A stretch of 64,000 bases of DNA from a virus. A model generated the notes under the pieces. It ran no database searches and was not told where the DNA came from. It worked only from the letters and a program-made list of their open reading frames with translations. A program made the position numbers and the translations under genes. Location: positions 1 to 64,000 of the IMG/VR virus record IMGVR_UViG_3300013286_000501; one strand, 5' to 3'. Below, in pieces: positions 1 to 7,213 of this stretch (position 1 is its first letter; each line of letters begins with the position of its first letter).

Positions 1-58
1 CTCGAACCACTAACACTCTCCGTATGAAGGAGGAAGACTACCATTGTCCTACAGTACC
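1..58 (-). tRNA. tRNA with CAT anticodon (Met or Ile2), 3' part beyond window edge
   Basis: GGTACTG-TA-GGAC..GTCT, anticodon loop TTCATAC, T-loop GGTTCGAG truncated at position 1. Confidence 0.8.
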
Positions 59-64
59 ATATAG

Positions 65-195
65 AAGACAACTGCGAAAACAATGTTGCTGGCACGGCGT
101 TGGTCGCGAAAACCTTTCCTTTCTACTTGGCATTGTTAACTGCCAGTTACTAGACTACAAGGGCCCTTGTGCCTGTGTTCACTGTCAATTGTCTT
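65..195 (-). ncRNA. candidate structured ncRNA between tRNA genes
   Basis: Nested helices AAGACAATTG/CAGTTGTCTT, ACAGTG/CATTGT, GGCAC/GTGCC plus internal hairpins ACAAGGGCCCTTGT and TGGCA..TGCCA. Confidence 0.5.
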
Positions 196-200
196 TTATA

Positions 201-277
201 TGGTGGATTGCCAGGGAATCGAACCCTGAGTCTTACTCCTTAAAAGGGAGATGTTTTAACCGTTAAACTAGCAATCC
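201..277 (-). tRNA. tRNA-Lys(TTT)
   Basis: Cloverleaf GGATTGC/GCAATCC, loop CTTTTAA, TTCGA, encoded CCA. Confidence 0.95.
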
Positions 278-282
278 CGTAT

Positions 283-357
283 TGGTCCCTCCGGGCAGAC
301 TTGAACTGCCAACCAGCGGATTAAGAGTCCGTTGCGCTACCATTGCGCCACAAAGGG
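283..357 (-). tRNA. tRNA-Lys(CTT)
   Basis: Cloverleaf, loop CTCTTAA, encoded CCA. Confidence 0.93.
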
Positions 358-418
358 TTAGTTGTATTAAATTGATTTAATGTGCCAACCCTAGACCAAT
401 ACGGGATCTAGAGCGACA

Positions 419-439
419 CTAACGTTTAGCACGTTTCAT
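419..439 (-). CDS. putative 6-aa leader peptide MKRAKR
   Basis: GAGG SD 7 nt before ATG AAA CGT GCT AAA CGT TAG; own promoter upstream; strong hairpin immediately downstream. Confidence 0.5.
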   Translation of the reverse strand: MKRAKR

Positions 440-468
440 ATCGTTTCCTCTTTTGTGTTTAAGTTTAA

Positions 469-497
469 AGTATACAACCTTTTGCAGTAGTTGTCAA
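469..497 (-). promoter_or_regulatory. sigma70-type promoter
   Basis: TTGACA-17nt-TATACT. Confidence 0.8.
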
Positions 498-506
498 CTG
501 TTTTTT

Positions 507-582
507 TGGTACCAAGAGTCGGAATCGAACCGACCACACCCTATTCTTCAGACAGGTGCTCTACCAACTGAGCTATCTTGGC
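507..582 (-). tRNA. tRNA-Phe(GAA)
   Basis: Cloverleaf, loop CTGAAGA (G37), encoded CCA. Confidence 0.95.
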
Positions 583-588
583 ATTGAT

Positions 589-662
589 TGGGGTGAAAGC
601 GGGAATCGAACCCTGGTCAACTGATTCACAGTCAGCTATGTTACCACTACACTACTAACACC
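589..662 (-). tRNA. tRNA-His(GTG)
   Basis: G-1:C73, loop CTGTGAA, CCA; two mismatches in acceptor stem. Confidence 0.88.
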
Positions 663-674
663 ATAAATAAGTGC

Positions 675-1415
675 ATGAATAATATTCCTTTCCTACAGAA
701 AGTTGATAATCTAGGACAATGGGACATTCCTAAAGTTATCAATGATATCCGAAATTTATTTCAGTTATCTGGTTGTAACTGGGATACATGGCAAAGAAAT
801 AACAAATTAACACATGGTCAGTTTGTAGATTCAAAGTTACACGATAACCAAGGTTACTTAAACCTAACATACAATCCTGGATTGTCAAACTCTATTGAAG
901 ATCGTCTATGGTCATTTTCCGGAAGAAAGTTCCAAGAACGAAATGATGTAGCAGACGGTGATCTCCATACTCTGCAACCTGAACTAGCAGGAACATATAT
1001 TGAAGAGCTGTTTAAAAAACTAACACAAGAGCTAGGTCCTGTTCGGCTTCGTTTACATAACAAAGCGGATCAAAAAGGATTATATTGGCATCGAGATGAA
1101 TGGGACGATGTCTCACAATATCGATATCATTTAACCTTATGGACTAATCCTGGACATTTTATAGTCTGGACTAAAGATGAATTTACTTGGCAATATGGAT
1201 TTGATCCCAGAGAAACCAAGAAAGACATAAAAATCAATGCAGAATATATGCCAGTGAATGGCAATATATTTCAAATGGCTACCGGAGTATATCTCCATGG
1301 AGTATCTAGTATTGCAATAGGATGGAACGCTTCTCATCAAATGCAGAGTAGATGTCATCTTGTAGCAATACCTATGGTACCAAATAATAGGCATTTTGAA
1401 TATACTTACAAATAA
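675..1415 (+). CDS. putative Fe(II)/2OG-dependent oxygenase (aspartyl-hydroxylase-like cupin)
   Basis: WHRD (HxD) .. RYHL .. LHG .. RCHLV motif order; TAAATA 5 nt upstream. Confidence 0.55.
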   Translation: MNNIPFLQKVDNLGQWDIPKVINDIRNLFQLSGCNWDTWQRNNKLTHGQFVDSKLHDNQGYLNLTYNPGLSNSIEDRLWSFSGRKFQERNDVADGDLHTLQPELAGTYIEELFKKLTQELGPVRLRLHNKADQKGLYWHRDEWDDVSQYRYHLTLWTNPGHFIVWTKDEFTWQYGFDPRETKKDIKINAEYMPVNGNIFQMATGVYLHGVSSIAIGWNASHQMQSRCHLVAIPMVPNNRHFEYTYK

Positions 1416-1416
1416 G

Positions 1417-1494
1417 TGGCAGGGGTAATCGGATTCGAACCGATGATACTAATTTCAAAGACTAGTGCTTTAGGCCAAACTAAGCTATACCCCA
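1417..1494 (-). tRNA. tRNA-Gln(TTG)
   Basis: Cloverleaf, loop CTTTGAA, G73-CCA. Confidence 0.93.
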
Positions 1495-1504
1495 ACAAAT
1501 AAAA

Positions 1505-1561
1505 CAGGATGCTTATTTTTGAATTAAAAGTTCAATTGTATAAGTTGCTGAACGCATCCTA
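1505..1561 (-). ncRNA. mini-RNA motif copy 1 (AGGATGC-GTTCAGCAA..GCATCCT) carrying a tRNA-Lys-like anticodon stem-loop
   Basis: Terminal stem AGGATGC/GCATCCT; internal TTGAA-CTTTTAA-TTCAA; homologous copy at 1824-1885. Confidence 0.6.
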
Positions 1562-1566
1562 AAAAC

Positions 1567-1649
1567 TGGTGCTGCCTATAGGAATTGAACCTATGTTCTC
1601 TTTCGAGCCGCCTTATCAAGACGGTGCCTAACCATTCGGCCAAAGCAGC
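1567..1649 (-). tRNA. tRNA-Ile(GAT) with atypical long variable arm
   Basis: GCTGCTT/AGGCAGC, loop TTGATAA, variable arm CTC-GAAA-GAG, CCA. Confidence 0.88.
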
Positions 1650-1656
1650 ATTATAT

Positions 1657-1731
1657 TGGTACCGCCAAAAGGAATCAAACCTCTATTCCCACGTTCGTAG
1701 CGTAGTGTATTATTCATTATACTATGGCGAT
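1657..1731 (-). tRNA. tRNA-Arg(ACG), divergent D/T loops
   Basis: Loop CTACGAA; D-loop lacks GG; T-loop TTTGATT; CCA. Confidence 0.8.
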
Positions 1732-1736
1732 AAAAT

Positions 1737-1814
1737 TGGAAGTGCGGGCCAGATTTGAACTGGCGGTTTTACTGGTTTGCAATCAGTTGCCTTGGACCAC
1801 TCGGCCACCGCACT
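1737..1814 (-). tRNA. tRNA-Cys(GCA)
   Basis: Loop TTGCAAA, U73-CCA. Confidence 0.93.
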
Positions 1815-1823
1815 ATAATAAAA

Positions 1824-1885
1824 CAGGATCAACTTTTTAGTTTCTGGATAAAAGAAAGTTGTTTAAGTTTGCTGAACTGATCCTA
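1824..1885 (-). ncRNA. mini-RNA motif copy 2 (AGGATCA-GTTCAGCAA..TGATCCT)
   Basis: Same terminal stem with compensatory changes, same GTTCAGCAA core, internal hairpin TTTCT-TTTATCC-AGAAA. Confidence 0.6.
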
Positions 1886-1889
1886 AAAC

Positions 1890-1965
1890 TGGTCTCTCCT
1901 GTGGGACTCGAACCCACGAAATCCTCGCCCCAAACGAGGTGGCATAGCCGCTAACCGAAAGAGAG
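1890..1965 (-). tRNA. tRNA-Pro(TGG)
   Basis: C1, loop TTTGGGG, A73-CCA. Confidence 0.93.
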
Positions 1966-1972
1966 ATAAAAT

Positions 1973-2047
1973 TGGCATCCCCTGTTCGATTTGAACGAAC
2001 CCCGGTGATTTTGGAGATCACTGTGCTGCCGCTGACACTAAGGAGAT
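1973..2047 (-). tRNA. tRNA-Trp(CCA)
   Basis: Loop CTCCAAA, G73-CCA. Confidence 0.93.
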
Positions 2048-2053
2048 ATAAAT

Positions 2054-2143
2054 TGGTGGAAACGGTGAGATTCGAACTCACGGACCCCTTTCGGAGTCGA
2101 CTCCTTAGCAAGGAGCTGCCTTCGGCCACTCGGCCACGTTTCC
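2054..2143 (-). tRNA. tRNA-Ser(GCT)
   Basis: Loop TTGCTAA, long variable arm, CCA (A73). Confidence 0.93.
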
Positions 2144-2149
2144 TAAAAC

Positions 2150-2261
2150 TGTTACGACTGGTAGGTCTTGAACCTACAAAGGCTATGACTATGTCTTCGC
2201 CCCGTCCCCTGTCTATGCTATGAGCATAGCGGGAGGTCTTCCATATTCCACTCACAGTCGC
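2150..2261 (-). ncRNA. oversized tRNA-like RNA (about 110 nt)
   Basis: Acceptor-like GCGACTG/CAGTCGT, T-arm GTAGG-TTCAAGA-CCTAC, extended anticodon arm tipped by CTATG-CTCATAG-CATAG; ends AACA, not ACCA. Confidence 0.7.
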
Positions 2262-2268
2262 ATATATA

Positions 2269-2296
2269 ATTATACACGAGTTAAGTAGAATGTCAA
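2269..2296 (-). promoter_or_regulatory. sigma70-type promoter internal to tRNA array
   Basis: TTGACA-16nt-TATAAT. Confidence 0.75.
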
Positions 2297-2302
2297 GTTA
2301 TT

Positions 2303-2397
2303 TGGTGGAAAGCGGAGGAGTCGAACCCCACCCTGTTCTTCACAAGGACCCAGTTTTCAAGACTGGTCGGGGAACCAACTCCCCTGCATCACTTTCC
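2303..2397 (-). tRNA. tRNA-Ser(TGA) with 8/4, Sec-like cloverleaf
   Basis: 8-bp acceptor GGAAAGTG/CGCTTTCC, 4-bp T stem, 6-bp D stem with 4-nt loop, loop CTTGAAA, long variable arm, CCA. Confidence 0.85.
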
Positions 2398-2403
2398 ATT
2401 ATT

Positions 2404-2478
2404 TGGCGACTCGACGGGGAATCGAACTCCGATAATCGGATAGACAATCCGAAGTAATGACCTTTATACGATCGAGCC
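2404..2478 (-). tRNA. tRNA-Asp(GTC)
   Basis: Loop TTGTCTA (U37), G73-CCA. Confidence 0.92.
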
Positions 2479-2484
2479 TAAAAT

Positions 2485-2560
2485 TGGCGCCGTCGACGGG
2501 AATCGAACCCGCCTAAATCTGATAGACAATCAGGTGCCCTACCCAGAGGACTACAACGGC
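2485..2560 (-). tRNA. tRNA-Asp(GTC)
   Basis: Loop TTGTCTA (U37), G73-CCA. Confidence 0.92.
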
Positions 2561-2564
2561 AAAT

Positions 2565-2640
2565 TGGTATCGCGGACGGGAATCGAACCCGCCTAGCCAC
2601 CTTGAAAGGGTAGTGACCTAGCCCAGAAGTCAACCGCGAT
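2565..2640 (-). tRNA. tRNA-Glu(TTC)
   Basis: Loop CTTTCAA, CCA. Confidence 0.93.
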
Positions 2641-2646
2641 GTAATT

Positions 2647-2736
2647 TGGTGGATCATGAAGGAATTGAACCTAACTGCCAGCCACCCAACAATATTATGG
2701 CAACGATTTTACAGACCGCCGTTGGGAACATGATCC
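2647..2736 (-). ncRNA. D-armless tRNA-Tyr(GTA)-like RNA
   Basis: 8-bp acceptor GGATCATG/CATGATCC-ACCA, loop CTGTAAA, 3-bp T stem with TTCAATT, no D arm. Confidence 0.75.
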
Positions 2737-2975
2737 AAAACACACTCTAGCAGTTTATCTTTCTGCCTCTCTGTACTATGTACTCGGAACGAATGTGTGT
2801 ATTAAAATGCTCTACCGCTATGCGTTTAGACACCGTCGTAAGGTGAATGAAGAACACTTTAATACGATCTAATTTTTAGTCCCACAAGAGGGATTCCATC
2901 CTAGTCGCCGCCCGTTTGCTAGATGTTTATACTGCCTAGCGAGGACCTCGTTTCCTCATAACACAGTTTGCGATG

Positions 2976-3128
2976 TTAACGACCTCCGCAGAGTATCTCT
3001 CGCTTTCTCATAGCTTCATAACTTTGAGCAGCTCTTGCTAACTTGTTCTCGAACAACTGTTTAAGTTGTTCGGGGGTTAGAGTGTGCTGTTTAAGCCAAT
3101 TCACTTCTTTGATCTTTTTATCGTCCAT
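2976..3128 (-). CDS. small hypothetical protein (50 aa, MDDKKIKEVNWLKQHTLT..)
   Basis: Hand-translated ORF directly downstream of the attenuator terminator. Confidence 0.5.
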   Translation of the reverse strand: MDDKKIKEVNWLKQHTLTPEQLKQLFENKLARAAQSYEAMRKREILCGGR

Positions 3129-3140
3129 TTTCTTAATCGG

Positions 3141-3175
3141 AAAACAAAAAACCCCAGGGTTCTTAATCCTGGGGT
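3141..3175 (-). terminator. intrinsic terminator of putative attenuator
   Basis: ACCCCAGG-ATTAAGAAC-CCTGGGGT followed by TTTTTGTTTT. Confidence 0.85.
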
Positions 3176-3200
3176 CCTTGGAAGTTAAAATGTAATCTAG

Positions 3201-3344
3201 TTACACTTTGGTCTCCTGGGACCCCGAGTTAATCTCCGGTGTGCGATCATAACTTGACAGACTATTAATCGCTAACCAGCCGGCGGACATGCATCCAACC
3301 TGTTTGGCTATCGTATTAAAATGTTGTCTTTGTTGCGATTGCAT
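3201..3344 (-). CDS. putative attenuator leader peptide (47 aa, contains all 20 amino acids)
   Basis: MQSQQRQHFNTIAKQVGCMSAGWLAINSLSSYDRTPEINSGSQETKV; lies between promoter and terminator; 3' end carries antiterminator GGGGTCC. Confidence 0.7.
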   Translation of the reverse strand: MQSQQRQHFNTIAKQVGCMSAGWLAINSLSSYDRTPEINSGSQETKV

Positions 3345-3402
3345 TTTGTTTTCTCTTTAAACCTTTGTTTACATCGACAGCACCATTGCTGTCTATGTGT
3401 TA

Positions 3403-3431
3403 ATTATACATTTATTTAGTCTCGTTGTCAA
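3403..3431 (-). promoter_or_regulatory. consensus sigma70 promoter of tRNA array
   Basis: TTGACA-17nt-TATAAT; spacer also contains CTAAATA late-type motif. Confidence 0.85.
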
Positions 3432-3524
3432 CCACTTTTTGCAATTTTGGCAAAATATTTTAAAGTATTTTGTCTAGTTGCCTACAATGCTTGCTAACTT
3501 AACTCCATTGTACAGGTATTTACC

Positions 3525-4397
3525 TCACCTGTCAACCACTATTTGCAAATTTGGAAACATTGTTTTTGTAACTAATTCTGTTACATTTTTTGTTACCAGC
3601 TGTTTTCTAGCAGTCCACCAATTGTAACACCTATTTCTCAACTGGTCAAGTCCCACAGGATCTTGTATGTATTGATGTACTAGCGTAGGAACCAATGCCC
3701 AGTTGTCAATCTGTATAGCAGGAAAATCTAAACCATGCATGTTTGCCCAATAGTCACTGCGCTCAACTATAGGGATACATCCTGCTTCTAGAGCTTCTGT
3801 TACACGGAAGTTATCCATGATGATAGCACCACGAGGACAAGGAACAAACATACTGTCCCTATACATTTTGCTCATTTCGGCAGGAGTTAGTCTAGGACCA
3901 TGATGCCCTGCAACATATAAATTACCATTAGGTATAGAACTCATAGCCTGTGCCATGTTATTCCTATTTTGATCCCATCGTGCTCCCACGCAGGCCCATA
4001 TAAACTTACGTTGATCGGCTGGTGGATTTTCAGTATGTGCAGTGAATCCCGTATTGTAACCTAGCGGAATGTGCATGACATTATTGGGCACTGAATTGCG
4101 GTAGTAGTTTCTTAATACAAACTTGCAATCTTTGTAACTAGAAATGTCGTCAGCAGTAGATTCATCTGTTAAATGCACCATGCCAAAGTTTAAACCACGA
4201 CGAGTCATTTCTGCAACATATTCATTATGATACGGTGCCCAGCAAATTGCATCAACAATTACACTGTTGTCAATAAACTGTGTGTGATCTAGATTTTCAA
4301 CTGTGCGATGTGGAATATCTTGGAACAAGTATTCAACCCATTCATCTTCCCAAACACTACTTCTAGCACGTTGCCAAACAATTGTAAGTTCTTGCAT
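3525..4397 (-). CDS. exostosin/GT47-like glycosyltransferase
   Basis: SMFVPCPRG..FRVTEALEAGCIPI motif; start re-assigned to MQELT. Confidence 0.7.
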   Translation of the reverse strand: MQELTIVWQRARSSVWEDEWVEYLFQDIPHRTVENLDHTQFIDNSVIVDAICWAPYHNEYVAEMTRRGLNFGMVHLTDESTADDISSYKDCKFVLRNYYRNSVPNNVMHIPLGYNTGFTAHTENPPADQRKFIWACVGARWDQNRNNMAQAMSSIPNGNLYVAGHHGPRLTPAEMSKMYRDSMFVPCPRGAIIMDNFRVTEALEAGCIPIVERSDYWANMHGLDFPAIQIDNWALVPTLVHQYIQDPVGLDQLRNRCYNWWTARKQLVTKNVTELVTKTMFPNLQIVVDR

Positions 4398-4398
4398 G

Positions 4399-4947
4399 TT
4401 AATCTTTCTGAAATGCCCAAGTAACACCGTCAACTATCTGTGCATCTGGAACTAGTTCTTGAACAGCTTGCATAACACCGGGCCATGTGTGGTGATAATC
4501 GTCACCAGATAGTATACCACCGGATTTAACTTTTGGCATCCACGCTAGAATATCTGCCTTTACATCTTTGTATTCGTGGCTAGCATCTAACATGACAAAG
4601 TCTAGACTGTTGTCTTCGTATGAAGCTGCCGCTTCCAAACTGGTCATGCGTTTAGGATTATAATATCCTTCAACTGATTTCATATTGTCGATGAAATGAT
4701 TATATAGTTGGTCTTGTTGAACCATTTCGTCATTCTGATGTTCTAGAGATCCCGCCCATGTATCAACAACATCGAATTTAATATTCTTACCGCTGTTGGC
4801 AATTGCCACAGCAAGGTAAGAAGTGCTCTTGCCTTTCCATGCCCCTACTTCAACAAAGTGGTCGCCTTCATCTGCATTTTCTACAGCATAGGTGTAGATT
4901 GAGATGTAGTTAAACCATCCCTCGATTGTGTGATAAAAGTGATCCAT
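4399..4947 (-). CDS. class I SAM-dependent methyltransferase (Methyltransf_24-like)
   Basis: VEVGAWKGKS, LDASHEY, GDDY motifs. Confidence 0.85.
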   Translation of the reverse strand: MDHFYHTIEGWFNYISIYTYAVENADEGDHFVEVGAWKGKSTSYLAVAIANSGKNIKFDVVDTWAGSLEHQNDEMVQQDQLYNHFIDNMKSVEGYYNPKRMTSLEAAASYEDNSLDFVMLDASHEYKDVKADILAWMPKVKSGGILSGDDYHHTWPGVMQAVQELVPDAQIVDGVTWAFQKD

Positions 4948-5029
4948 TATATTTTTCCTTTTATTTTATGTATAAGATTTCTTAATAATTCTTCAGTTGG
5001 TGCAGAACACAGATCATGTGTGATTGTTT

Positions 5030-5113
5030 TTACTGTTTCAACAGGTATTCGACCCATTCATCTTCCCAGACACTATCTCTAGCACGTTGCCAAACTAAAG
5101 TTAATTCACTCAT
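5030..5113 (-). pseudogene. truncated paralog of the GT47-like gene (27 aa remnant)
   Basis: MSELTLVWQRARDSVWEDEWVEYL matches N-terminus MQELTIVWQRARSSVWEDEWVEYL of 3525-4397. Confidence 0.75.
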
Positions 5114-5661
5114 GGTTTTTTATAAATCCAGCAGCCATTTTCAATTTGGCAACCCGGAAATTGTTCGTCAGCGGCTTTCATTACTCCGGGAAAGTCTCTT
5201 TGATAGTCGTCCCCTGCTAGAACTCCGCCGGACTTAACTTTAGGTAACCAAGCCAAAATATCTGCTTTAACATTTTCATAATCATGGCTAGCATCCAATA
5301 GAACCATATCTAAGCTGTTATCTGCATATTCAGCGGCAGCTTCTAAACTAGTGGTTCTTTTTGGTGTATAATACCCTTCGACAGGTTTCATATTACTTAG
5401 AAAGTGTTCGTATAATGTATCAGCAATAACCATAGGATCAGTACAATGATACACTTCATCCGAACCACGCCATGTATCTACTACATCAAATTTAATTTGT
5501 TTGCCACTGTTAACAATTGTTGTAGCTAGATATGCTGAACTTTTACCTTTCCATGCACCAACTTCAACAAAGTGAGATCCGTCAACTGCTTCTGCAACTG
5601 CTCTGTTGTAGATATTGTGGAACTGAAACCAGCCCTCAATTGTTTCAAAAAAATGATCCAT
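5110..5661 (-). CDS. class I SAM-dependent methyltransferase, paralog of 4399-4947
   Basis: Same motifs; clearly high identity to neighbour. Confidence 0.85.
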   Translation of the reverse strand: MDHFFETIEGWFQFHNIYNRAVAEAVDGSHFVEVGAWKGKSSAYLATTIVNSGKQIKFDVVDTWRGSDEVYHCTDPMVIADTLYEHFLSNMKPVEGYYTPKRTTSLEAAAEYADNSLDMVLLDASHDYENVKADILAWLPKVKSGGVLAGDDYQRDFPGVMKAADEQFPGCQIENGCWIYKKP

Positions 5662-5678
5662 TATATTTTTCCTTTATG

Positions 5679-6518
5679 TTATAGGTATTCGTTAATTGAT
5701 TCTAACTCACCAGTGACAATATAGTCTTTGTATTTGTCTTGATTTTCTAGAATTGTTTTGGGGAAGTAATCGTCTAATGCAACTTTGACAAACGGACGGC
5801 TATCTAGTGGATTGAATCCCACACCCTTTTCCATCATCTCGTCAACGTTGATCTGTGCCAATATTTCTTCCTTGTTTAGTTCAGCGTGTGAAGACTCCTT
5901 GAGTTTAGTTTTAACCCATTCAGTATCGCCCATGTAGGTAAAATGCCAACCTGCGTGTTCGTACATTTTAATTCGGCCATCATCGTACTCATACTCGAGA
6001 TTATTTAATCCGAATCGTTGTGCTCTGAAATCTTCTGGCTTAATGACAAACTTCTTACGACCGCCTGTGATCCAAACACAATAGCTTTCGTGGTTGTCAA
6101 CTAACATGTAATTGAACTTGAAGTTAAAATAAGGAGTTCTGAATCCGTATAGGTCTCGAGGGTTTGCTCTAATGTCATCCATAATTTCTGGGCGTAGGAT
6201 TTCATCACAGTCACATACAATAACAATATCGTCATCTTCTGCACTAACTAGGCCTCGGACAATAGCATTACGTTGATGGTGGTCGTTGTCCCATGGACCT
6301 GTATTGGGCATGTCATCAACAACAACATAGATCATTTTATCATGCCATTGTGCAAATCGTTCCCAGTTATTTTTAAGAACAAGATCTTTTGGTTCACATT
6401 GGAATGTATGCGTAGCTTCTACAATAACAAAGTGATCAACATGATCATAAAGTTCACGTAGTCGTAGTTCCAATAGGTCTAGTTCATTTCTGAACAGTGA
6501 GCAGTCATATATTTTCAT
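5679..6518 (-). CDS. GT17-family (MGAT3-like) N-acetylglucosaminyltransferase
   Basis: IYDC..F.NELDLLELRL.EL..VD.FVIVEA, DCDEI, GWHFTY. Confidence 0.85.
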   Translation of the reverse strand: MKIYDCSLFRNELDLLELRLRELYDHVDHFVIVEATHTFQCEPKDLVLKNNWERFAQWHDKMIYVVVDDMPNTGPWDNDHHQRNAIVRGLVSAEDDDIVIVCDCDEILRPEIMDDIRANPRDLYGFRTPYFNFKFNYMLVDNHESYCVWITGGRKKFVIKPEDFRAQRFGLNNLEYEYDDGRIKMYEHAGWHFTYMGDTEWVKTKLKESSHAELNKEEILAQINVDEMMEKGVGFNPLDSRPFVKVALDDYFPKTILENQDKYKDYIVTGELESINEYL

Positions 6519-7213
6519 TTAATAATATCCATTCTATAAAGTTCGGGAGGGAATTCTTGCTGGTAATGATCTACATTACTATCAAACAAAGAATACGGGT
6601 TTAAGTTTGATTGTCTACCATACCAAAATTCAATATCGTACCTATAAAAATTCATAGGTGAAATAATTTGAGGATAAAATCTTACTGTACTTGGTAATTG
6701 TATTTTAGGCCAGCTGGCAATAAATTCAGATTTAGCCCAGTATTGATTACCGCTAAAATGAACAACTGGATCATACAACAAATTACAACCAACAATGTTA
6801 TATCCGTTATCTAATTGGTAGATGCATGACTGCCAATTTTCAATGCACCAATAGTCCATTAACCATCGCCAATGAGCCATTTTTTGCTCTGCATCAGTAC
6901 CTACGGCTGTTATACCCTTTTGATGTAGATACAATGCGTAGAATGGTTCATCGGCATCTACCGCATGAGTTTGCATTAGTATTGCAGTAGGATGTTCGTA
7001 TTCTTCTTTTGTTGCATCACAATGCACCCAATGAATATTTGGATGTGATTGTGATTTTATTAAATCGTTATAAGATTCTGGATCATAATGAAGATACACA
7101 TACAGTTCTGCATTATCTAGTAATCCACTAGATGTTAATTTATCAATACGTTCAGTTACTAACACTTCCCAGCCCGGCAAATTAGTAACCTGATAAAATA
7201 TTTTTAGTTTCAT
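6515..7213 (-). CDS. hypothetical protein, probable glycosyltransferase-like
   Basis: YLHQKG and HFSGNQYW motifs; glycan-cluster context. Confidence 0.5.
   Translation of the reverse strand: MKLKIFYQVTNLPGWEVLVTERIDKLTSSGLLDNAELYVYLHYDPESYNDLIKSQSHPNIHWVHCDATKEEYEHPTAILMQTHAVDADEPFYALYLHQKGITAVGTDAEQKMAHWRWLMDYWCIENWQSCIYQLDNGYNIVGCNLLYDPVVHFSGNQYWAKSEFIASWPKIQLPSTVRFYPQIISPMNFYRYDIEFWYGRQSNLNPYSLFDSNVDHYQQEFPPELYRMDIIK

Follow-up and report, generated by a model that had tools for sequence, protein, structure and literature searches.

A candidate leader-peptide attenuator encoding all 20 amino acids ahead of tRNA arrays in uncultured freshwater jumbo phages

Upstream of a tRNA array in an uncultured giant lake phage, we describe a short open reading frame in which every one of the 20 amino acids is encoded and which runs into a predicted RNA switch. 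Comparison of the sequence with that of relatives, which are uncultured freshwater jumbo phages, indicates that the element is probably a ribosome-mediated leader-peptide transcription attenuator, in which stalling of the ribosome would lead to read-through. This reading had been put forward in the original prediction, and each of its predictions that can be tested at the level of sequence held in relatives. Coverage of the 20 amino acids is kept by selection while the residues themselves shift position. Phage tRNA arrays are usually viewed as constitutive codon-usage aids or as spares against tRNA-cleaving defences.

Source contig and organization of the leader region

The window, i.e. the whole stretch of 64,000 nucleotides analysed here, covers the first 64 kb of an IMG/VR contig of 80 kb, which is estimated to represent 22% of a jumbo phage genome. 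DnaK, NrdA and further large-phage genes are carried by this phage. The leader region is located on the minus strand and includes the following features, listed in the direction of transcription:

3525-7213, minus strand: run of GT47-like glycosyltransferase-like and class I methyltransferase genes, upstream of the leader
3507..3535, minus strand: upstream tandem sigma-70-like promoter, TTGACA-17-TACAAT, 11/12 (consensus scan)
3403..3431, minus strand: leader promoter, TTGACA-17-TATAAT, 12/12 sigma-70 (consensus scan)
3376..3393, minus strand: 5'-UTR hairpin GACAGCA..TGCTGTC, just past the expected transcription start
3201..3344, minus strand: leader ORF, 47 codons (stop included), all 20 amino acids encoded (ORF list and orthologues)
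3237..3278, minus strand: predicted ORF-internal hairpin, W-L-A-I-N segment complementary to Y-D-R-T-P segment (RNAalifold)
3213..3225, minus strand: antiterminator 5' strand GGGGTCC-CA-GGAG, codons 40-44 (complementarity and orthologues)
3187..3209, minus strand: inner hairpin AAAGTGTAA/TTACATTTT, 9 bp, with the TAA stop in its 5' arm (folding and covariation)
3171..3184, minus strand: antiterminator 3' strand CTTCC-AA-GGACCCC (complementarity and orthologues)
3141..3175, minus strand: intrinsic terminator with an 8-9 bp stem, ACCCCAGG (3175-3168), 9-nt loop, CCTGGGGT (3158-3151), U-tract TTTTTGTTTT (3150-3141)
2976..3128, minus strand: conserved small protein, 50-codon ORF, first gene behind the switch (ORF list and orthologues)

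The gene run upstream of the leader includes two paralogous methyltransferases of 182-183 aa. Its GT47-like gene matched no viral contig when used as a query. No similar sequence was obtained when the leader DNA and the leader peptide were searched against GenBank phages.

The consensus promoter claimed at 3403-3431 is present on the minus strand and matches at 12 of 12 positions. A promoter of the same type was found upstream of 106 of the 109 distinct orthologous leaders. In the window, both tandem promoters (3507..3535 and 3403..3431) are preceded by a GCAAA(T/A)AGTGG box. Compensatory changes were observed at all 6 pairs of the 5'-UTR hairpin among 14 orthologues, and protection of the 5' end or pausing of RNA polymerase are possibilities for its role. 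The whole leader RNA folds much better than its shuffled versions (z = -5.6). The Shine-Dalgarno sequence of the leader is weak, comprising an A-rich context with GAGA/GGAA 9-13 nt upstream of the conserved ATG.

Leader ORF and its relatives

The 47-codon ORF predicted at 3201-3344 was retrieved on the minus strand, and a recount bears out that all 20 amino acids are reached by residue 37 and that 34 distinct codons are used. The accompanying remark that many of the codons end in G or C holds in its direction, with GC3 of 0.42 in leaders versus 0.33 in phage genes, although the effect is modest.

To find related leaders, freshwater contigs in IMG/VR were reached through DnaK, and amounted to hundreds. 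A BLAST search with the leader against 46 DnaK-found contigs disclosed 17 orthologous loci with 67-99% DNA identity. A pattern composed of the ORF motif and a T-run retrieved at least 119 additional stretches (about 120 loci), and another, built from the terminator and the antiterminator 3' strand and independent of the ORF, retrieved 46 further distinct leaders without the ORF motif. In three complete genomes (349-525 kb) that gave no BLAST match, tRNA arrays were located by a tRNA model and the DNA upstream of them was read. Each of the four arrays in these genomes is preceded by a promoter-like site, an ORF of 45-53 codons and a terminator in the same layout, and the one complete genome with two arrays carries two leaders. 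The pooled orthologues comprise 151 distinct leader peptides with lengths of 41-55.

The same architecture was observed in every relative found, including the diverged complete genomes. Alignment of the first 18 sequences (the window and the 17 loci) shows a conserved ATG, indels in multiples of three and ORFs of 46-53 codons, each of them with all 20 amino acids. The conserved length anticipated in the original prediction is also seen in orthologous leaders at large, which have a conserved start codon, ORFs of 41-55 codons and a stop codon kept in position; this stop is TAA in 105 of 109 leaders.

Substitution patterns show that the amino acid sequence of the leader is weakly constrained. The dN/dS ratio is ~0.7-0.8 before the Trp codon, 0.5 in the W..DRTPE core, and 1.0-1.25 where the ORF overlaps the RNA switch. 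The core is conserved in many leaders, and diverged leaders without DRTPE exist; a pure "one of each" rule leaves the invariant W..DRTPE core unaccounted for. The RNA segments coding for WLAIN and YDRTP, the two most conserved stretches of the peptide, are complementary to each other, and from them RNAalifold proposes the ORF-internal hairpin at 3237..3278. Because none of its 11 pairs is changed on both sides and a swap test gave no covariation, this hairpin is unproven.

Codon choice in the leaders of 109 relatives departs from that of phage genes. In four-fold boxes NNT codons are avoided, the fractions of GCT, ACT, GTT and CCT being 0.05-0.08 versus 0.34-0.47 in phage genes, and in two-fold boxes they are preferred, with GAT, CAT, TAT and TTT at 0.86-0.92 versus 0.58-0.67. 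This bias may reflect a tuned decoding speed, or confounding by structure and ancestry. Since RNA structure, conserved motifs and common ancestry all confound it, codon choice was left out as evidence.

Coverage of all 20 amino acids

In a single sequence, coverage of all 20 amino acids is only mildly unusual. For a single peptide of 47 residues, the chance of 20/20 was computed as 0.024 if the amino acid frequencies of the phage are used, and as 0.115 if uniform ones are. The window has 75 six-frame ORFs of 40-56 aa; three of them contain all 20, and only the leader ORF is followed by a terminator. The weight of the argument therefore rests on the orthologues. Here, 124 of the 151 distinct leaders encode all 20 amino acids, 25 encode 19, and 2 encode 18.

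Residue counts per leader peptide are under-dispersed (108 peptides). Exactly one Cys is present in 92 of these 108 peptides and none in 8; every peptide has His, Tyr and Trp, and an internal Met is found in 107. The residues are nevertheless spread over many alignment columns, 20 for Cys, 15 for His and 14 for Tyr, and those lost at one position of the leader were evidently regained at another. Full coverage also persists in very diverged leaders that have no DRTPE motif. Codon runs for a sensed amino acid do not occur in the leader, which has about one codon per amino acid instead.

To account for phylogeny, a null was constructed in which each column was simulated on the leader tree with its own composition and a rate fitted to the parsimony count, in 300 runs. 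Full coverage under this null is 0.22 with a random root and 0.31 with the root forced to all 20 (sd 0.10, maximum 0.72). The observed value in the same set, 0.889, was matched by none of the 300 simulations. The null is conservative, since the composition it uses has already been flattened by selection. As a control, we used the small protein encoded behind the terminator, which is of similar length; 78 of its 83 versions have 14-18 residue types and 5 have all 20. The conserved coverage in orthologues expected from the original prediction is thus found in a proportion far above a phylogeny-aware null.

Coverage of Glu is a special case. In 62-80 of 109 leaders, Glu is located solely at or past the edge of the stalling window that leaves the antiterminator free. 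Usually its sole source is the E of DRTPE, whose codon lies 5-17 nt before the antiterminator strand. Because a ribosome stalled at this codon may already mask the antiterminator strand, Glu may escape sensing.

Terminator, antiterminator and inner hairpin

The intrinsic terminator and U-tract described at 3141-3175 were confirmed; a consensus terminator scanner missed them only through its loop limit of 8, the loop here being 9 nt. All leaders have a terminator with a GC-rich stem of 8-10 bp and a U-tract. Across 103 distinct sequences, 98.8% of cells in the terminator are paired, and 4 pairs show a compensatory change.

The predicted complementarity between GGGGTCC-CA-GGAG and CTTCC-AA-GGACCCC is likewise present and overlaps the 5' arm of the terminator, the last 5 nt of the antiterminator 3' strand being the start of that arm. 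The helix proposed to cover the stop codon corresponds to the 3209-3187 hairpin, with the TAA inside it.

In the MAFFT register, only 78% pairing was obtained for the antiterminator, because about half of the rows were shifted by one base. This alignment was rejected, and a covariance model of the antiterminator and inner hairpin was used instead to re-align 99 sequences. In the resulting alignment 80.6% of cells are paired versus 67.3% in shuffled alignments, a value reached by 0 of 500 shuffles. Changes on both sides affect 18 of the 20 pairs, and many compensatory changes are located in the inner hairpin. The antiterminator covariation anticipated in orthologues is expressed in a score of 0.39 versus 0.19 for shuffled alignments, and 0.09 or less with the partner slid by 1-3 columns. 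Compensated antiterminators are illustrated by leaders L122, with a perfect 13-bp helix of different sequence, L214 (GGGCUU:AAGCCC) and L097 (GGGUUCC:GGAACCC). A duplex-swap test on rare variants of the antiterminator 3' strand was ambiguous, since G-U wobble lets GGGUUC pair with GGACCC.

The two structures share the segment ACCC(C/U) and both helices covary, as is consistent with the mutual exclusivity originally claimed for them. The shared ACCC is nearly invariant across leaders, as would be expected if one strand has to pair with two partners. When the leaders are folded from DRTPE on, at the stage before the 3' arm of the terminator exists, 5-9 nt of its 5' arm are paired to the ORF in 110 of 110. 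The ORF partner of this arm is located 15-27 nt upstream of the stop, again in 110 of 110. Folding of the whole nascent leader gives the same antiterminator pairing, of at least 4 nt, in 109 of 109. The best folds with and without the terminator differ by a median of -0.7 kcal/mol, with a range from -6 to +4.

The geometry relative to the stop codon is regular. Between the stop and the AAGGACCC strand with which the terminator begins there are 22-32 nt; the terminator stem starts ~27 nt past the stop, and the U-tract ends 56-65 nt past it. RNAalifold also proposes a closing helix of 4 bp, GCC:GGG, without changes on both sides. A convincing anti-antiterminator (1:2 helix) was looked for by RNAalifold and by whole-leader folding, and none was found.

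In one true RNA run, an assembled contig of 293 nt extends over 3139-3410, and none is present over 3053-3133. Because contigs can show neither transcript ends nor levels, this pattern is no evidence for termination.

Downstream genes and tRNA arrays

Elements located behind the small protein gene in the window are as follows:

201..2736, minus strand: tRNA array with 15 called tRNAs and a tRNA-like RNA, ended by the contig end (tRNA calling and Rfam)
about 2647-2736, minus strand: tRNA-like RNA before the first called tRNA (weak 23-bit tRNA-Sec-like Rfam match; no call by ARAGORN)
2269..2296, minus strand: internal array promoter, 12/12 (consensus scan)
675..1415, plus strand: ORF of 246 aa interrupting the tRNA array (ORF list)
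419..497, minus strand: second internal promoter, 11/12 (497-469), with a GAGG Shine-Dalgarno sequence, micro-ORF MKRAKR (439-419) and an imperfect hairpin, ahead of a tRNA-Lys pair

In most relatives, the small protein is encoded by the first gene after the switch. It is characterized by the motif ..HTLTPEQ..KLI..K..(E)RA.. and a length of ~50-58 aa (50-59 aa in 71 of 83 distinct versions), and it has no match in Pfam, PHROG or Atlas. The ORF at 675-1415 has none in Pfam or PHROG.

A leader ahead of a tRNA array, as proposed from the single sequence, is a general feature, since a same-strand array follows in relatives with enough downstream DNA. Wherever this DNA suffices, the array is located 260-1030 nt past the leader stop, and none is on the opposite strand. 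The arrays contain up to 37 genes of 14-20 isotypes. In many relatives, the first array gene is called as tRNA-Tyr(GTA).

The internal promoter indicated at 2269-2296 was found at that position with a 12/12 match. Arrays average 1.7 near-consensus promoters on the same strand versus 0.08 on the other. The suggestion that the array depends only in part on the switch is borne out by this mean; because of these strong internal promoters, only the proximal part of an array would be strictly switch-dependent. In 18 complete arrays, no clear link was observed between an amino acid absent from the leader and a tRNA absent from its array.

The MKRAKR unit (419-497) directly precedes tRNA-Lys(CTT) and tRNA-Lys(TTT). 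Of 49 distinct relatives, 47 have a micro-ORF ahead of tRNA-Lys(CTT) that fits the pattern MKR.(.)K(R/L) and contains two or more Lys codons. In the window, the hairpin of the MKRAKR unit is not followed by a U-tract.

Proposed mechanism

Leader translation, the direction of control (from stall to read-through) and the physiological signal are suggested by structure and precedent. The host RNA polymerase would start at the consensus promoter, and the 47 codons of the leader would be translated by a ribosome. With rapid decoding, this ribosome would be at the last codons and the stop while the polymerase makes the terminator. A ribosome at the stop would cover the inner hairpin and GGAG and abut GGGGUCC, and in this way cover or unwind the antiterminator strand. 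ACCCC would then stay free, the terminator hairpin would form, and the transcript would end ~256 nt from its start.

If the ribosome stalls early, or if there is no translation, GGGGUCC..GGAG would pair with the emerging CUUCC..GGACCCC. The terminator 5' arm would be sequestered, and the polymerase would continue into the gene of the small protein and the tRNA genes close to the promoter. The same logic operates in trpL and in the whiB7 uORF. Since the leader holds about one codon per amino acid, a shortage of nearly any charged tRNA could trip the switch. More tRNA would restore fast decoding and thereby provide negative feedback. As no convincing anti-antiterminator was detected, an untranslated leader should also read through.

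Whether the purpose of the element is to sense the loss of any single tRNA is, in our estimate, evenly balanced, and a link to anticodon-nuclease defence is speculation. A wider reading, for which we see equal grounds for acceptance and for doubt, is that giant freshwater phages run a demand-driven tRNA supply. An all-amino-acid "test message" would open the operon of spare tRNAs and rising phage tRNA would close it, and short leaders matched to particular tRNAs, such as MKR.KR before the tRNA-Lys pair, would tune individual blocks. Under such a scheme, tRNA could become limiting through decay of host tRNA, codon mismatch, or cleavage by a host anticodon nuclease.

Alternative explanations

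The same RNA switch might gauge overall translation capacity and not individual tRNAs, with all-20 coverage as a by-product of an "average" message and with host shut-off, ribosome-targeting defence or antibiotics, or slow initiation as triggers. The untranslated nascent RNA favours the antiterminator in all 109 leaders, and therefore any failure of translation should give read-through. Attenuators of the whiB7 type answer many translation stresses, and stalling has less leverage at single codons than at the codon runs of trp, his and leu leaders, so that amino-acid-specific leverage is weak. However, an "average" message needs no full set of rare residues. Cys, His, Tyr and internal Met relocate yet are ever-present, and together with the excess over a composition-matched null this points to selection acting per amino acid. 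The regulated product, in addition, is tRNA. We consider a general gauge of translation unlikely.

It is very improbable that the ORF encodes a functional small peptide with a W...DRTPE core, that the hairpin is an ordinary leaky terminator of an early gene, and that the array is served by its own promoters. Conservation of the core in many leaders and the strong internal promoters of the arrays would fit this explanation. Outside the core, however, dN/dS is ~0.7-0.8 or higher, and the core itself is lost in diverged leaders that keep the length, stop position, coverage and switch. A functional peptide gives no reason for all-20 coverage, it leaves aside that the antiterminator covaries and overlaps the terminator, and the leader peptide has no family match.

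Hardly any credence is given to a protein- or ligand-operated switch, or to opposite polarity (translation leading to read-through), with the ORF incidental: the two folds lie so close in energy that any factor could tip the switch, and the conserved small protein downstream could in principle feed back, but the 5' strand is always 15-27 nt before a conserved stop that is itself inside the inner hairpin, a geometry that makes sense only if the position of the ribosome counts. In addition, Rfam gave no riboswitch or T-box match, and the terminator stem, ~27 nt downstream, can still form when a ribosome sits at the stop, which speaks against read-through driven by translation.

Comparison with known systems

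Attenuation by a translated leader, the reading we prefer, was compared with described systems. A cmscan search of window positions 1-5000 against Rfam (E<=1) gave only tRNAs and chance matches, with no leader family (Trp, His, Leu, Thr) and no T-box. Full-text literature searches turned up neither a leader with every amino acid nor attenuation acting on phage tRNA genes.

As a functional precedent, the uORF of whiB7 comes closest. In the whiB7/wblC attenuator of mycobacteria and other Actinobacteria, a uORF is also followed by an antiterminator/terminator pair, and stalls at single codons for many amino acids lead to read-through (PMC10274678). There, one Trp codon is sufficient for starvation of Trp to be sensed, and read-through rises when the start codon is lost (PMC10274678). 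In M. smegmatis, 19 of the 20 amino acids are present in the uORF, and removing its sole Trp removes Trp sensing; among species the composition of the uORF varies, it is Ala-enriched, and several amino acids are missing in M. tuberculosis (PMC10274678). The differences concern the target, which is a drug-resistance transcription factor for whiB7 and tRNA genes for the phage leader, and the coverage, which is incomplete in the whiB7 uORF but under selection across ~150 phage leaders. In addition, there is no sequence relationship, and the present element is phage-borne.

With the enterobacterial leaders trpL, hisL, leuL, pheL and the multivalent thrL/ilvL, the element shares a promoter, a short leader that would be translated, a terminator, and an overlapping antiterminator near the ORF end and stop. 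Four structural features of leader-peptide attenuators are seen in the sequence, namely a promoter followed by a short ORF, an intrinsic terminator, a helix mutually exclusive with it, and an antiterminator 5' strand close to the stop; the defining codon run is absent. Enterobacterial leaders have runs of codons that cover one to three amino acids, and their targets are biosynthetic enzymes, whereas the phage leader has about one codon for each of the 20 and its output is tRNA. They also differ in that no convincing 1:2 helix is seen in the phage element, which matches no Rfam leader.

An accessory tRNA array that is quiet until translation is impaired is known from the trn operon of Anabaena sp. 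PCC 7120 (PMC8421152, PMC10272220). In contrast to the phage arrays, it is cellular and controlled by the protein repressor TrcR, and its description mentions neither a leader peptide nor attenuation. T-box riboswitches similarly sense the state of the tRNA pool via competition between a terminator and an antiterminator, but a T-box binds one specific uncharged tRNA without translation, whereas the phage element is built around an ORF.

The element suggests that a large clade of jumbo phages uses one short message to gauge how all 20 amino acids are decoded, and obtains tRNA on demand. With it, the range of leader-peptide attenuation would extend from between one and three amino acids to the full set, and its targets from enzymes to tRNA genes. 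If the demand-driven reading is true, viruses would have re-invented attenuation, known for amino acid supply, to regulate the decoding machinery. The mode of selection is also unusual, as it acts on the presence of every residue type and not on sequence, and its signature could be used to find similar sensors. Because it is ~260 nt long and self-contained, the element is directly testable, and it could serve as a compact reporter of tRNA or amino acid limitation.

Occurrence in other genomes

The cultured jumbo phage XacN1, which has many tRNAs, was considered as a comparison and set aside; its tRNAs are scattered among ORFs, and 0 of its 74 small ORFs have all 20 amino acids. In a scan of genome contigs, the matches in Peribacteria and Clostridium were rejected as chance terminator matches without a leader ORF. 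The same type of leader, with all 20 amino acids and a terminator, is present at 5723-5926 in L287, on a 6.2-kb contig binned with a Polynucleobacter MAG. This is a weak hint to the host, or the contig is a mis-binned phage contig.
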